Assembly: GCA_019058295.1 (NCBI GenBank) | Contig: JAHPZI010000021.1 | Location: forward strand, 1 to 64,000 | Reading direction: 5' to 3' | DNA: 64,000 nucleotides | Origin: Promethearchaeota archaeon | GTDB lineage: Archaea; Asgardarchaeota; Lokiarchaeia; Sigyniarchaeales; SOKP01 | Shown: positions 2,578 through 50,801 of the stretch, one piece after another | How the letters are laid out: every line of letters starts with the position of its first letter | Numbering within the stretch: position 1 is the first letter of the stretch | Translations under genes and position numbers: made by a program | Notes under the pieces: model-generated | The model's input: only the letters and a program-made list of their open reading frames with translations | Database searches by the model: none | Told to the model about the DNA's origin: nothing

Positions 2578-5500
2578 ATGAGAAAAAGTAGAAAAGATTC
2601 TGATCATCTTCCAAGCTCTTTAAATCTTATTTTAATAGCTAGTACTCTTTTCTTTGTTTCTTTAATGTGTATTATGTTAAATGCTATAGTCTTTTCTTCT
2701 CAATCAATAAATTCTCGTGTCATCGTTTTTAATTATTTATTGCTCTTTATTTGTTTAATCTTTGTAACGATATCTCTTGGCTTTTTTATGAATAAAATTC
2801 CAGAGAGATACAAATCCAAATTTAAAAACAGGATTTTGAAACCGATCTCGAACTTTGTTCTTCAAAACTTGCGATATATACATTTATCTTTATTAGGTTT
2901 ATTGTCTATTGTATTTGGAATAACCTTATTATCGATTGGTTTCAATATTAAGGATATTCAAGTAGGGAGCCCCTCCAATAATTTTTCATTTGAAATCTAC
3001 CCTTCTTTAATCATAATTACTCTCTTATTATTAACCTTTTATTTTGTCTTTTTTTTTAGCAATATAATTTCAAACAAATTAAGGCTTAAACATGCTCTTT
3101 TTTATATTGGCGAGGTATTGTTAATAATTGTTATTATTCTTCATACTTATCTTTTCTTTGCCTTTCCTACGAAGAATAGCGCTGTAATCCTAAATAATTT
3201 AATTACAGGCACCCCTCAAGCTATTTCTAATTTTTTCGTAGGTCTTAACAAAAAAATAAATTATAGAATTTTAGATATGAAAATCTTTATGAATGATTTT
3301 AATCACACATTCAGTTTTTTTGGTTATTTTTTACTTATAATGATAGGTTTATGCTTTATCTCTTACATTATTAACTTAAAAAAAGATGATTCATTAAATT
3401 TTGAAAGAACTAGCCGGCTTGATAAAGCGCGTCTCAATATTTTCCTTACTATTTGTATGATAATTGCTGCGATTTTCACTCCTTTTGTTTTCTTATTTAT
3501 GGAATATAATGAACTATTTGCCCTAAATTTCCTTCTCTTTCAGATATTCTTATATATCGTATTTCTAACTATAATGTCAATACGATATAAATTGAGAGGA
3601 TTCAAATATATTTCTTTGTTTTTTATTCTCGTTCCCATTATAATATTTGTTATTGGTACTACTTTCATATTTACTGAATTCTCTTTTCTTACTTTTTGTG
3701 TTGCTCCTCTTATGTTTCTCCCAGCTTGGTTTTTTATTAGAAGTAAAATCCAACCTCGAGAAAATGTGATAGCAACTTTTCTTAGAAATTTTCATCTCCT
3801 CAAAATTAAAATTTTATTTATTATCATTGTTATTTGCTTATTTTTTGCGGGATTATTCTTTATGATAATTCCTTCACTCGTTGTATTTCCAATAGTTTTA
3901 CTATTTCCATCCATCTATTTCTTTACGATAAAAAGCAAACAAGCCTCAAGGCAATTTAATCAGCATAGAGCTAGGAGGTATAATTTAAATAAAAAAAGAG
4001 TTAAAAAATCAGATGACTTTAGTCCAGAACAAGAAAATTACAATGACAGACATTGTAGACCTGTTATGTTTATGATTGTCTTTTTAATTTGTCTACCTTT
4101 AGTCTTTTCTATTGGTACAATCACCAATGTAAATGAACCTCGGGTGGAGTTTGCGCTCCTTCCAGAAGACGATTCAGAGCTGGATTATAGTGAGCTGGAA
4201 TATAAGACAAATCCTAATGATTGGGGTGAAGTCCGATTTAATTCGAAAATGTTGATACGATGTACATTATCTCCGGAATCTACCCAATCCGCGCGAATGA
4301 ATGTAAAGCTTAAGCCACGTGATATGCCCGAAGTAGACGATATTGAATGGTATACTAAAATCGTTAATGGTCCCGTGGTTAATGGCACTCGATATATAAA
4401 ATTAGATTTTCAAGAGCTGGGTTTAATCCCCGGTAAATACAATTTAGAATTTTCTCAGTTTGTGCAGAATGCATTTACAATATATGGTTCTGCACCAATA
4501 AAACATAAATTAACTTTATCTAAGGACGATGTGAAAATCGTTCCTAATAATGATTTTAAATCTAATCCTGACATTGTTCCTGGAGTGGTTTATACAACAG
4601 AAAATAAAATGGACCACTACTGGGAGGTTACTTATTCTGGAAAAATTGTGAATTCCCTTGATGATCCAATTGAGGTAGATAATCTAGAACTTTATTTGGA
4701 AAACGGCAACAATTGGCAGAGAATTGCAATTATAGAATCAGAACCAGACGGCTCATTTAGTTATTCACACAGAATATATCAGTCATTCGAAATGAATTCA
4801 TTGGCAAAAATAAGTTTTGGTGGTAATGAATTCTATAATTCTTATGAACTGGAAGAATACGCAGGACTTGAATATTCTCTTGAAGATAATTTACGATTCT
4901 TTATGGATTTTGATGGAGACTCGATTATAGATTGGCCTTTCAATCTTTACGATTTACTTAAAGCGTTAAAGACATCACAAGCATCTATTCCTTCTATGGC
5001 GTTCTACGCTCCACTCGATGAAGCAACTGGCTTAACTACATACGATGTTATTTCTAATACTGAAGGTCAGTTAATAGACGATACATTATGGACAGAGGGC
5101 AAGATAAATTCTGCTATCGAATTTAATACTGCTGATACACAAAAATTTGTGAGATCAATAGAACATTTAGATCTTAGCATCGGCTGGTTTTCAAAAAAGA
5201 CGACTGTATCTCTAACAAAAGGACAAGATATTACTAATTGTGTACCTTTTGTTTCAAAAGAGATAACGGGACTAACAAGCGACGATTGGGATGATATTGA
5301 GACGGATATTTTCTTCCAATCAGATGCATCCGGTCCTAAATTGGTTGCAGAAAGGAATGGATGGCAAGGATCAGTTTCTCTTTCCGTTTTTGTTGTAGAG
5401 TTTGATGATCGCTACGTCGATGTGCAACAAGGCGAGATCAAATTTTCTGATTTAAGCTCTACAAATATCACATCCGAAGTTGATTTGGAAAAGACTGCAA

Positions 5501-48377: not shown

Positions 48378-50801
48378 TTAACTAAAAATAGATTCAAAAT
48401 AATCTAAAGCATGTTTTTTTACATTTCTAAAAAATTTTTCATTAAAGGGATTTAAATCACGGTTATTTTTTAACCAGTTATTTAAGAGCGAGATAAAATC
48501 TGTCAATTTGTCCACACCCTCTTCGATGAAATCATCTCTCATGTCTTCATAATCATAGTAATCTTTTAATTTTATTTTTGAAGAATAAACATTGTTTTTA
48601 TATATATAGATAATAGGAATGTACTTTTCAATATTAGTTGCATATTTATTATTACAATCTGCATTCAATTCTCCTCTCTTTATCAATGAGACATAATAAT
48701 CCTTATCAATCTTTATCCCTTTTTTGACAAAATTAAATATCCTAAACGTACCAGAAATAACCTCAGATTGCTTTTTTTTATTTTTTTCCATTATATTCTT
48801 TACCATATAATCAATAAAAAAATCATCTAAACTATTCACTATTTTAAATAATGGGCTATATTTACCATCTTTGCTATGTTCACTCTCTATTTTCTTCTCG
48901 GAATCGATCCCGACTATTTTATCAACATATAATGCGATTTGTTCTAAAATAAATTCCATTTTTTCATTATTATAATTTAGAAGCTTTAAAAATTCACTAA
49001 AATCCATAAAATCTAATAAAAAACATAATTTGGTTATAAATATATCTGGTTTAAACCATAGATTAATCTTGGATCTAAAAATATCTACTATTTTATCTTT
49101 AAATTCAGGTTCCTTTGTTTGATCTTTTATAACGTTTAAAAGTTTAAGTGCTGAAGTATCTATAACATCTTCCTTTGTAAAAATATGTTCCAATAAATAA
49201 TCGATGTAATAAATCCCAATTTTCTCTAAAAAATATATTATATCTTTTGGGACATTACCCAATTTATCATCAACTTTTGCTAATAGAATTTGTATCAATA
49301 GTTCCCTGTTGTTTTTACCTAGTTTTCTGTCGATAAAACGCTTAAGGATCATCTCATTTAATTTTTGGGGCAATCTAGATTTTAGAATATTTTCATTATC
49401 TTGTGTTACTAATTTCTCTAACATTTTTTTATCTAATGAGTCTAAATAGTTAAAATACTCGTCAATAGATAATTTTTCTATTAGTTTATATGAGATACTT
49501 ACTAAACTTTCAATATTTTTAAAATTAAAATCATGAATGAAAGATTTCAGAGTATTAATATCACAAGATAATTTAAATATAGTATTCTCTTTTGAGATTG
49601 GGTCTAATTTGATGTGGTATTCTAAGAATGCCTCAGAAGAATATGGATTGGATATGCATCTATCAATTAGATTTTCTTTTAGAGACATAGGTAAATCTGT
49701 AATATTATTCTCTCTTAAATCAATTGTTCTGAGAGATTTTATGTTGGGTAACGATTCAGGGAGTCTCTCTAACCTATTATTCCTCAAATCTAATTTTTGA
49801 AGCATTTTTAGATTTCCTATCGACTCTGGGAGAATCTTTAATTTATTTCCATTTAAAGATAATATTAAGAGTGATGTAAGGTTGCCAACGGGCTCTGGAA
49901 GAGTCTCTAAAAAGTTTTCATTTAAAGATAATATTAAGAGAGAGGTAAGGTTGCCAATAGACTCTGGAAGAGACTCTAATCCGTTTCCATTTAAAGATAA
50001 TATTAAAAGCGATGTAAGGTTGCCAATAGACTCTGGAAGAGACTCTAATCTGTTTTCATCTAAAGATAATATTAAGAGAGAGGTAAGATTGCCAATAGAC
50101 TCTGGGAGTGCCGATAGCTCGCATTCACTAAGTCCTATTCCCATAACTTTATTATTCTCGGTTATAAAACCCATCTTAGTATCCCGCTTCATTCTAAGTA
50201 CTTGATTAAACTTTAAATTTGTTAATGTTTCTATTTCTTGAAGTGCATCTATTTCATATTGCGGAATTTGAGCATCTCTTAAGGCTACATCCTTAATTCC
50301 CCTCATTTCACCTAGCTTGGTCTCCACATCGCTTACAATTTCAGTTATAAGCTTTTTTCTTTCGGGAACGATAGATACTTTTGTTTGGGGAAGATTGATA
50401 TTTCCATCTAAGTGTAATAAATTATATTTACCCTGTCTCATCTTATTAATATGGTTAAATACATCGAAATTTGATTCATTAATCATACTTGAAATTTTAT
50501 CTACTTCTAATGGTTCATTTTCTATTAGTGTACTAATGATTTTTCTATTAATTCTTTCTTTCATGAGAAAATAGTAAAGTGCGTGTTCTCCTTCCATCTC
50601 ATAGGGGTGGAATAATTTGTATCCAAAGTATTTAAACTTCTTGATATTATTGGCTTTTATTAGTTCTTTTAATTGAAGTTTAATATAATTCTCAATAAAT
50701 GTAATTCCATCAAGAAAGAAATCACTAAAGGTAAATTGTTTTAATATTGAAAAGATATCACTTGGAAATTTTTTGATATATCTTAAAATTAAATCCTTCA
50801 C
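48378..50801 (-). CDS. LRR protein with probable tandem winged-HTH N-terminus and helical C-terminal region (LRR2)
   Basis: GTG start with purine-rich GAAGAGGA upstream. N-terminal ILRYIKKFP...LKELIKANNIKKFKY..YKLFHP and NRKIISTLIENEPLEVDKISSMINESNFDVFNHINKM resemble wHTH helices. Central LPESIGNLTSLLILSL repeats. Confidence 0.8.
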   Translation of the reverse strand: MKDLILRYIKKFPSDIFSILKQFTFSDFFLDGITFIENYIKLQLKELIKANNIKKFKYFGYKLFHPYEMEGEHALYYFLMKERINRKIISTLIENEPLEVDKISSMINESNFDVFNHINKMRQGKYNLLHLDGNINLPQTKVSIVPERKKLITEIVSDVETKLGEMRGIKDVALRDAQIPQYEIDALQEIETLTNLKFNQVLRMKRDTKMGFITENNKVMGIGLSECELSALPESIGNLTSLLILSLDENRLESLPESIGNLTSLLILSLNGNGLESLPESIGNLTSLLILSLNENFLETLPEPVGNLTSLLILSLNGNKLKILPESIGNLKMLQKLDLRNNRLERLPESLPNIKSLRTIDLRENNITDLPMSLKENLIDRCISNPYSSEAFLEYHIKLDPISKENTIFKLSCDINTLKSFIHDFNFKNIESLVSISYKLIEKLSIDEYFNYLDSLDKKMLEKLVTQDNENILKSRLPQKLNEMILKRFIDRKLGKNNRELLIQILLAKVDDKLGNVPKDIIYFLEKIGIYYIDYLLEHIFTKEDVIDTSALKLLNVIKDQTKEPEFKDKIVDIFRSKINLWFKPDIFITKLCFLLDFMDFSEFLKLLNYNNEKMEFILEQIALYVDKIVGIDSEKKIESEHSKDGKYSPLFKIVNSLDDFFIDYMVKNIMEKNKKKQSEVISGTFRIFNFVKKGIKIDKDYYVSLIKRGELNADCNNKYATNIEKYIPIIYIYKNNVYSSKIKLKDYYDYEDMRDDFIEEGVDKLTDFISLLNNWLKNNRDLNPFNEKFFRNVKKHALDYFESIFS
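49855..50110. repeat. Four near-identical 69-bp tandem LRR units
   Basis: AAAGATAATATTAA recurs at 49855, 49924, 49993 and 50062, each followed by near-identical GTAAGGTTGCCAATAGACTCTGG. Confidence 0.9.

Follow-up and report, generated by a model that had tools for sequence, protein, structure and literature searches.

A giant membrane-anchored protein with exchanged, sequon-free tails and neighbouring leucine-rich repeat genes as a candidate effector/immunity-type system in Promethearchaeota

Introduction

Polymorphic toxin systems such as CdiA-CT/CdiI, Rhs and MafB are built on a large exported protein, in which a conserved scaffold ends at a sharp demarcation motif and is followed by C-terminal regions that are exchanged by recombination. 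They also have 5'-truncated orphan cassettes and, next to the main gene, a partner gene whose sequence varies together with that of the C-terminal end. Proteins with leucine-rich repeats (LRR) are a listed immunity class of the bacterial systems (Imm-LRR; Zhang et al. 2012, PMC3482391), and classical polymorphic toxin systems have been reported to be rare in archaea (PMC3482391). Here we describe a locus of a Promethearchaeota archaeon that resembles these systems in the scaffold, the boundary, the exchanged ends, the orphan cassettes and an adjacent LRR gene, with signs of co-variation in the short one of its two classes of C-terminal ends. It consists of a gene for a protein of 14,473 amino acids (aa), hereafter the giant, and two neighbouring LRR genes, LRR1 and LRR2. 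The analysed DNA, hereafter the window, is a stretch of 64,000 nt of contig JAHPZI010000021.1; nucleotide positions are those of this stretch and residue numbers are those of the giant protein.

The locus also differs from the bacterial systems. The giant has no FHA, TPS, RHS, HINT, VENN, LXG, PAAR or T5SS-T7SS (type V to type VII secretion system) element, a membrane anchor of 13 helices is part of the same chain, the partner gene is often convergent, and the tails of the giants are 800-2,000 aa long with no recognised toxin fold. Pfam searches across the 14,473 aa gave no match to the features of contact-dependent inhibition (two-partner secretion (TPS) domain, FHA-1/FHA-2 repeats, VENN-type motif, CdiB), and the boundary motif is a different one. 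In contrast to the setting of CdiA/CdiB secretion, the archaeon has no outer membrane. Rhs toxins have a shell of RHS/YD repeats and a PxxxxDPxGL-type demarcation, whereas the giant, compared with these and with teneurin-like proteins, had no RHS/YD match in Pfam and few repeats. The parts of MARTX and large clostridial toxins (RTX/CROP repeats, cysteine protease, glucosyltransferase) had no Pfam or PDB sequence match in the giant. A first-pass annotation of the window, made from the DNA letters and their translations, had recognised no Rhs, FHA, RTX, Hint or cysteine-protease motif, and Pfam likewise found none. The system looks like one that follows the contact-dependent effector/immunity logic and uses none of the known parts of the bacterial systems. 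Since the host archaeon has a single membrane and general N-glycosylation, it also carries a signature without bacterial counterpart, a tail free of N-glycosylation sequons (N-x-S/T, x not P).

Islands resembling polymorphic toxin systems have been predicted in archaea from comparative genomics, with DUF4157 Zn-protease, colicin D and PD-DExK nucleases (Makarova et al. 2019, PMC6393860). In both cases the genomic context is the ground for regarding archaeal loci as polymorphic toxin systems. The islands differ from our locus in the chassis and in the LRR pairing, and none of their signatures was found with Pfam/NCBIfam in the giant or in ~30 tails. Proteins of more than 10,000 aa are, among archaea, commonest in Asgard archaea, and many 'unrelated giant genes' have no assigned function, according to the parts of Wu et al. 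2022 (PMC8813620) and West-Roberts et al. 2023 (bioRxiv 10.1101/2023.11.21.568195) drawn on here; these parts do not describe the conserved module, the tail polymorphism, the LRR pairing or the sequon void reported below. The Aloposons of Heimdallarchaeia, as presented in the same part of PMC8813620, are giant genes arranged in tandem at tRNA sites and preceded by four conserved genes, one of them for a MinD/ParA-like ATPase. Upstream of our giant there is only an open reading frame (ORF) resembling family 31 carbohydrate-binding modules (CBM31), on a contig that starts 2.5 kb upstream; neither a ParA-like gene set nor, though no tRNA scan was made, a tRNA site was seen there.

Results and discussion

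A conserved module followed by exchanged tails

Related genomes were searched with the last 2,574 aa of the giant and then with an alignment of 16 sequences (A2; aa 11,900-12,640; mean column identity 37%). Of 400 Asgard genomes, 52 contained the conserved region before the tail, here called the pre-tail module; 48 of these belong to the window's own family, which was represented by 134 genomes. The surrounding ORFs reached 11,376-20,619 aa, and G024:C5, G020:C2 and G024:C9 were collinear with the giant from aa ~500 to ~12,570 at 30-40% identity. The giants are found mostly within a single Promethearchaeota family, in which a genome has several paralogs and orphan cassettes. Two module-bearing contigs, L087 (JAAKFN010000045.1) and L107 (JAUWRD010000225.1), are in metagenome-assembled genomes (MAGs) labelled Anoxychlamydiales and Actinomycetes, respectively, and are probably mis-binned Promethearchaeota contigs, not bacterial homologs.

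BLAST homology of the giant to six independent loci stopped at aa 12,562-12,571, right past a boundary motif in which the columns E622, E626, D630, E634, S660, R662 and E663 of A2 were invariant. This agrees with the scaffold conserved to ~aa 12,600 that the first-pass annotation had expected. Past the boundary the tails fell into two classes, a long class of ~1,750-2,000 aa, to which the giant belongs, and a short class of ~700-1,350 aa with a hydrophobic segment ~70 aa past the boundary. Identity profiles dropped abruptly, either at aa 12,562-12,571 or 200-400 aa further on, from 80-95% to ~18-28% within ~100 residues and with no gradual decay. Loci L032 and L033, with modules 88% identical, shared 80-95% up to +180 aa and 18-28% beyond, the tail being ~18% identical beyond +190 aa. 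The same abrupt drop was found between L047 and L048 and between L040 and L051, the latter two having modules 65% identical and tails 26% identical. In the paralogs L034 and L058 of one genome (G249) the modules were 89.7% identical and the last 400 aa 17%. The tail of the giant itself was 22-26% identical to tails whose modules reach 65% identity among themselves.

Additionally, many genomes contained 5'-truncated orphan cassettes consisting of a module fragment and a tail. Their ORFs begin inside the module, mostly with no plausible start codon, and no stalk remnant was found upstream. Tandem arrays of such cassettes were present in G193:C64 and G271:C185. Judged from these profiles, the tails are mosaic and are exchanged by recombination. 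The non-homologous C-termini predicted in the first-pass annotation were found in this form (L034/L058, L032/L033), but the long class of the giant is one very fast-evolving homologous family, in which hhalign gave a probability of 99.4-99.7% for two subclasses and weak collinear matches to others.

LRR genes beside the tails

At ~33 of the 49 cassettes examined, an LRR gene came directly after the tail or within the next few genes; the window's genome has only ~15-20 LRR genes in 3.2 Mb. The LRR proteins found after long tails, mostly encoded convergently, share the N-terminal domain of LRR1, recognised by its FWxHCSN motif. Short tails had plain LRR proteins of ~290-560 aa, or else other small ORFs, behind them. 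That the LRR genes stand there by chance was considered as well and was ruled out by the conserved adjacency. One of the few tails with no recognisable LRR gene after it was that of L042 (G214:C13:140619-142649), with an ORF of 20,619 aa and a long-class tail of 1,961 aa.

In 10 short-class loci the identity of the partners correlated with that of the tail ends with r=0.84, a value to which a single group of three related loci contributes most, and with that of the modules with r=0.22. The tail ends of L058, L059 and L039 were 47-50% identical and their partners 65-66%, whereas the partner of L034 was only 30% identical despite a module 90% identical to that of L058. The linked and co-varying LRR gene of the first-pass annotation was confirmed as to the linkage and, in the short class, supported as to the co-variation; in the long class the partner and tail sequences are too divergent to resolve it.

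The pairing was also seen from the LRR side, where a 40%-identical homolog of LRR1 was found 17 bp from a gene for 14,548 aa. Two other LRR1 homologs from this search had no adjoining giant gene. The window's genome has just one further FWxHCSN-LRR gene (G000:C29:24754-26310), which has no giant gene beside it either; its N-terminal domain is 49% identical to that of LRR1, and a 926-aa ORF of unassigned function lies convergent to it at ~1.5 kb. The FWxHCSN-LRR genes away from giants may be orphan partners or may belong to a family with a wider role. We consider it highly probable that the locus is a polymorphic tail cassette with a cognate partner gene.

A sequon void in the tails

N-glycosylation acts outside the membrane and is, to our knowledge, the only process that reads the N-x-S/T motif. 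The giant had no sequon past aa 11,242, in a stretch of 3,231 aa where 19.5 were expected, which was the most extreme case among 450 ORFs of the genome; in its tail 0 were found and 12.2 expected. In 28 tails of both classes we found 4 sequons vs 263 expected, whereas the reversed control motif occurred 238 times, about as expected. A replication set of 18 further tails had 0 vs 183 expected, and the 46 tails pooled had 4 vs ~446. For comparison, the observed/expected ratio (O/E) in the window's genome was 0.93 for cytoplasmic-like ORFs and 1.87 for ORFs with a signal peptide, that of the LRR partners was 0.85, and that of the stalks of the homologs was ~1 (112 vs 118 in G024:C5). In the giant's own stalk sequons were present and depleted (47 vs ~90 expected; 15 vs 46.6 in its first half, aa 520-6000, positions 4138-20577). 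In the homologs sequons recurred in the alpha/beta domain of the module at ~-215, -270 and -305 and up to -144 from the boundary, and almost none were found past H4, a helix near the end of the module. A literature search on sequon depletion gave nothing relevant.

A cytoplasmic region should show a neutral sequon rate, and as the tails do not, the region from H4 onward would have been exposed to the oligosaccharyltransferase. The void further suggests that even one glycan on this region is harmful. Such an intolerance is expected of a chain that later passes through or into a membrane, and the sequon void would in this way lend independent support to the tail as exported cargo.

H4 had a marginal hydrophobicity (median Kyte-Doolittle ~1.3), and in 16 of 16 sequences its flanks were net negative before and 0 to +6 after. 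These charges suit a stop-transfer helix in cis as well as one that spans the membrane of a recipient. With H4 as stop-transfer helix the giant would be a cis-acting adhesin or receptor, in which the stalk forms a doubly anchored extracellular loop, the tail stays in the cytoplasm of the producer and the LRR protein is an adaptor or regulator, for example in coupling cell contact to signalling or the cytoskeleton. Besides the flanks of H4, this is favoured by the net charge of the tail (-0.3 per 100 aa), which is close to the median for cytoplasmic-like ORFs in the genome (-0.6) and unlike the value for the stalk (-11.8). The LRR partners have no signal peptides and a cytoplasm-like sequon frequency, the N-terminal domain of LRR1 is highly conserved in a family found also away from giant genes, and ~30 scanned tails gave no toxin domain, all of which fit the same explanation. 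However, at the cytoplasmic O/E of 0.93 the 46 tails should not have 4 sequons where ~446 are expected. The breakpoints, the 5'-truncated orphans and the co-variation of the partners are moreover marks of conflict or recognition systems, not of housekeeping receptors, and H4 is only marginally hydrophobic. Because it leaves the sequon void without explanation, we ranked the cis-acting protein down and regard it as unlikely.

The tail could also be exported and not delivered, as a variable extracellular tip for partner or kin recognition or adhesion that is renewed by recombination with silent cassettes, in the manner of pilE/pilS, the LRR gene being either a regulator linked to it or a passenger with no relation to it. 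Such a tip would be in line with the close cell-cell partnerships of Promethearchaeota, with the polymorphic tails and their promoter-less orphan cassettes, and with the exposure to the glycosylation machinery that the sequon void points to. Yet a tip gives no reason for a signal-less cytoplasmic LRR protein that goes with the tail and co-varies with its end, for the intolerance of even a single glycan in divergent soluble domains of ~60,000 residues in total, or for a cytoplasm-like composition of the tail when that of the stalk is acidic. We therefore think an extracellular tip distinctly improbable.

Proposed delivery of the tail into another cell

The preferred reading is that the tail is exported free of glycans and delivered into another cell, with the LRR protein as a cytoplasmic immunity or recognition partner, and to this we give about an even chance. 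In the proposed sequence of events the 13-helix anchor would hold the giant in the membrane of the producer, and the whole chain past helix 13, including the tail, would be exported via Sec and exposed to the oligosaccharyltransferase. The part from H4 onward would stay free of glycans and later insert into, or cross, another membrane, by which the tail would reach the cytoplasm of the contacted cell. There it may be bound by the signal-less LRR protein, which would give immunity to kin or serve as a recognition partner; poisoning, manipulation and kin recognition are candidate roles of the tail in the recipient. A more specific form, in which a single-chain, Sec-exported device threads a cargo of 800-2,000 aa across the membrane of a neighbour, sequon avoidance marks the cargo and cognate cytoplasmic LRR proteins recognise it, is offered as a tentative idea that is rather likely to need revision.

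The pre-tail module offers some points of comparison for such a delivery. Its AlphaFold2 (AF2) model (predicted local distance difference test (pLDDT) 67.5) contained a helical hairpin of 50+37 residues with a hydrophobic tip, an alpha/beta domain and a helix of 74 residues that includes H4. Its helical hairpin is Gly/Ala/Thr-rich and marginally hydrophobic, as are those of the diphtheria toxin T domain and of colicin pore domains, a resemblance in the way of working only, and as in the translocation domains of AB toxins and colicins, conserved acidic residues are found on amphipathic helices just before the cargo. Unlike those domains, the module showed no sequence or fold match above background (Foldseek against solved folds and VIA gave generic hairpins only), and we do not claim membership for it.

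Several observations weigh against delivery. Pfam/NCBIfam searches of ~30 tails (the NCBIfam scan covered 7 proteins) gave no toxin, nuclease, deaminase, protease or pore-former domain, and tails of 800-2,000 aa far exceed the usual toxin domains. AF2 on alignment A1 modelled aa 13,283-14,473 of the giant with a pLDDT of ~90 for the last 760 aa (model residues 430-1191). The confident part of this model had only background matches in whole-model searches with Foldseek-PDB, VIA-wide and the Atlas, and its conserved positions were mostly structural, with none that looked catalytic; a search of the ESM Atlas by features also gave no usable match for the tail. No mechanism is known by which a tail of ~1,900 aa could be carried through the membrane of a target, and the flank charges of H4 also suit an ordinary stop-transfer helix that leaves the tail in the producer's cytoplasm. 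On the side of the partner, LRR1 is convergent with the giant and not co-transcribed with it, the conserved N-terminal domain of LRR1 and its occurrence away from giants fit a general adaptor as well, and to these are added the narrow basis of the correlation in the short class and the divergence of the long class. The contact-dependent effector/immunity logic of the first-pass annotation was largely borne out in its comparative predictions, and not in the form of a toxin domain or a matched fold.

Domain matches in the tails were restricted to the short class and comprised signal-peptidase-I-like regions, one LAGLIDADG and one weak ThiS/MoaD (ubiquitin-like, Ubl) match (L023:10729-12852 in G019:C47, P0176, L025:8102-10363 in G020:C192 and L017:6975-10154 in G024:C91). 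The archaeal signal-peptidase-I-like family TIGR02228 was just over the cut-off in P0176 and in L023:10729-12852. From their sequence these parts could be cargo-releasing or processing modules.

If delivery is true, this would be an archaeal effector/immunity-type system made from undescribed parts. The physical interaction of Asgard archaea with their partners and competitors matters for models of eukaryogenesis and is an open question. The sequon void makes a testable claim, namely that the tail is exported and unglycosylated, and provides a simple signature that can be searched for in other archaea; if the interpretation is true, sequon avoidance could serve to identify delivered proteins across whole archaeal genomes. 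The pairing with the large, Asgard-expanded LRR family suggests a possible function for part of this unexplained expansion. If the more specific form above is true, effectors and LRR receptors would be engaged in an arms race in those prokaryotes that are most closely related to eukaryotes, one that foreshadows LRR-based innate immunity.

The giant gene and its parts

The giant is encoded by one ORF of 14,473 codons plus stop, with 0 internal stops and 0 N (Table 1), in a MAG of 30 contigs (3.2 Mb, 79% complete, ~32% GC). Few internal repeats were found in the protein, so its length is not a tandem-repeat artefact. The ORF might be a metagenome artefact, such as an assembly chimera, or a decaying, non-functional pseudogene, given the 30-contig MAG at 79% completeness and relatives that are split by a frameshift (G020:C2) or are relics (G007:C54, C95). 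Against this stand a frame of 43.4 kb without stop in a genome of ~32% GC, collinear homologs of similar length in many independent assemblies, and purifying patterns such as the invariant motif columns and the sequon void, and we find an artefact scarcely credible. An assembly chimera, considered separately, was ruled out by the collinear homologs.

Between aa 17 and 515 there are 13 hydrophobic helices, the loops of which are by turns rich and poor in K/R and so form a clean positive-inside pattern; the predicted topology has the N-terminus inside and the chain leaving on the outside past helix 13. Polytopic N-termini were found in the giant homologs too. In the stalk, which is ~11,400 aa long, the net charge was -40 to -80 per 500 aa (aa 520-12,000; -11.8 per 100 aa overall). 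Pfam on the whole 14,473 aa was blank apart from Laminin_G_3 and a sub-threshold Big_13 match, the latter being all there was of an Ig module, and sequence searches of PDB with the first 4,900 aa and the last 2,574 aa of the giant gave zero matches. The DxDxDG motifs numbered 4 vs 0.05 expected from shuffling, and their positions were kept in the G024 homologs. Late in the protein, hydrophobic helices were located at aa 11,961-12,012, 12,096-12,134 and 12,430-12,460. The strongest late segment lies in an insertion (aa 12,100-12,146) that is missing from the 15 homologs in A2. The tail is K-rich and approximately neutral overall, with +6 to +8 per 500 aa at aa 12,501-13,500.

The first-pass annotation had described this protein well in most respects. 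The single 14,473-aa chain, the polytopic anchor and the DxDxDG cluster were all confirmed, as was the acidic stalk with its lectin domain, the Ig modules being reduced to the sub-threshold match. The late hydrophobic hairpins exist and include the conserved H1/H2 hairpin, although the strongest segment is peculiar to the giant. Its basic tail of ~2,000 aa is indeed a distinct, K-rich region of 1,903 aa, but not a basic one. The abutting LRR gene, 5 bp away, and the second LRR gene are real; both are on the minus strand and LRR1 is convergent.

Table 1. Positions of the features of the giant gene and its neighbourhood in the window.
Feature	Position	Strand	Basis or remark
Giant gene, 14,473 aa	2578..45999	+	single ORF; collinear homologs over aa ~500-12,570
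N-terminal polytopic anchor, 13 predicted transmembrane helices (aa 1-515)	2578..4122	+	hydropathy, positive-inside pattern
Acidic extracellular stalk (aa 516-11,899)	4123..38274	+	net charge
Laminin_G_3 / concanavalin-like lectin domain (aa 1228-1382)	6259..6723	+	Pfam PF13385, E 1.2e-19
Four DxDxDG Ca-binding-type loops (aa 11,357-11,831)	36646..38070	+	motif count vs shuffling
Conserved pre-tail module (aa 11,900-12,570)	38275..40287	+	alignment A2
Long helical hairpin with hydrophobic tip, H1/H2 (aa 11,937-12,026)	38386..38655	+	
Lineage-specific hydrophobic insertion (aa 12,100-12,146)	38875..39015	+	hydropathy and A2
Marginally hydrophobic helix H4 (aa 12,430-12,460)	39865..39957	+	border of sequon-free zone
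Boundary motif (aa ~12,521-12,562)	40138..40263	+	invariant acidic amphipathic helix E..EE...D...E followed by W-x-S-S-x-x-T-S-x-R-E
Polymorphic long-class tail (aa 12,571-14,473), 1,903 aa	40288..45996	+	sequon-free; no Pfam/NCBIfam/PDB sequence match
Confidently folded alpha/beta part of tail (aa 13,712-14,473)	43711..45996	+	AF2 on alignment A1
LRR1, N-terminal FWxHCSN domain (aa 1-~200) and LRRs	46005..47363	-	Pfam LRR_14, LRR_8
246-bp element, copy 1, 185 bp upstream of LRR1	47548..47793	.	direct repeat
LRR2, 807 aa, N- and C-terminal regions unlike those of LRR1	48378..50801	-	Pfam LRR_14, LRR_8 at aa 205-371
246-bp element, copy 2, 316 bp upstream of LRR2	51117..51361	.	direct repeat

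LRR1, LRR2 and neighbouring sequences

LRR1 and the giant lie tail to tail, with their stop codons 5 bp apart. The LRR parts of LRR1 and LRR2 were 40% identical, and inspection of both proteins by eye showed no obvious N-terminal hydrophobic signal. In 30 homologs of the N-terminal domain of LRR1 (aa 1-200; 46764-47363, minus strand) D56, S91, N92, K131 and E133 were invariant and H89 and C90 near-invariant. The domain had no match in Pfam, PDB sequences or the ESM Atlas; it is undescribed and, from its conserved residues, might be catalytic. The copies of the 246-bp direct repeat upstream of the two LRR genes were 88-91% identical and were the only two in the 3.2-Mb genome. The repeat could be a shared promoter or leader that co-regulates LRR1 and LRR2.

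The ORF directly upstream of the giant (238-1776) had a partial match to a family 31 carbohydrate-binding module (AlcCBM31, E 1.7e-11). On the other side of the locus, two pairs of direct repeats, 51402-51448 / 57279-57325 (47 nt, 96%) and 51491-51543 / 56756-56808 (53 nt, 91%), bracket a block of ~5.9 kb with an MFS transporter, a PHP-domain protein and a 946-aa ORF that had no Pfam match. Its limit coincides with the 3' end of msrA, an arrangement like that of an integrated island.

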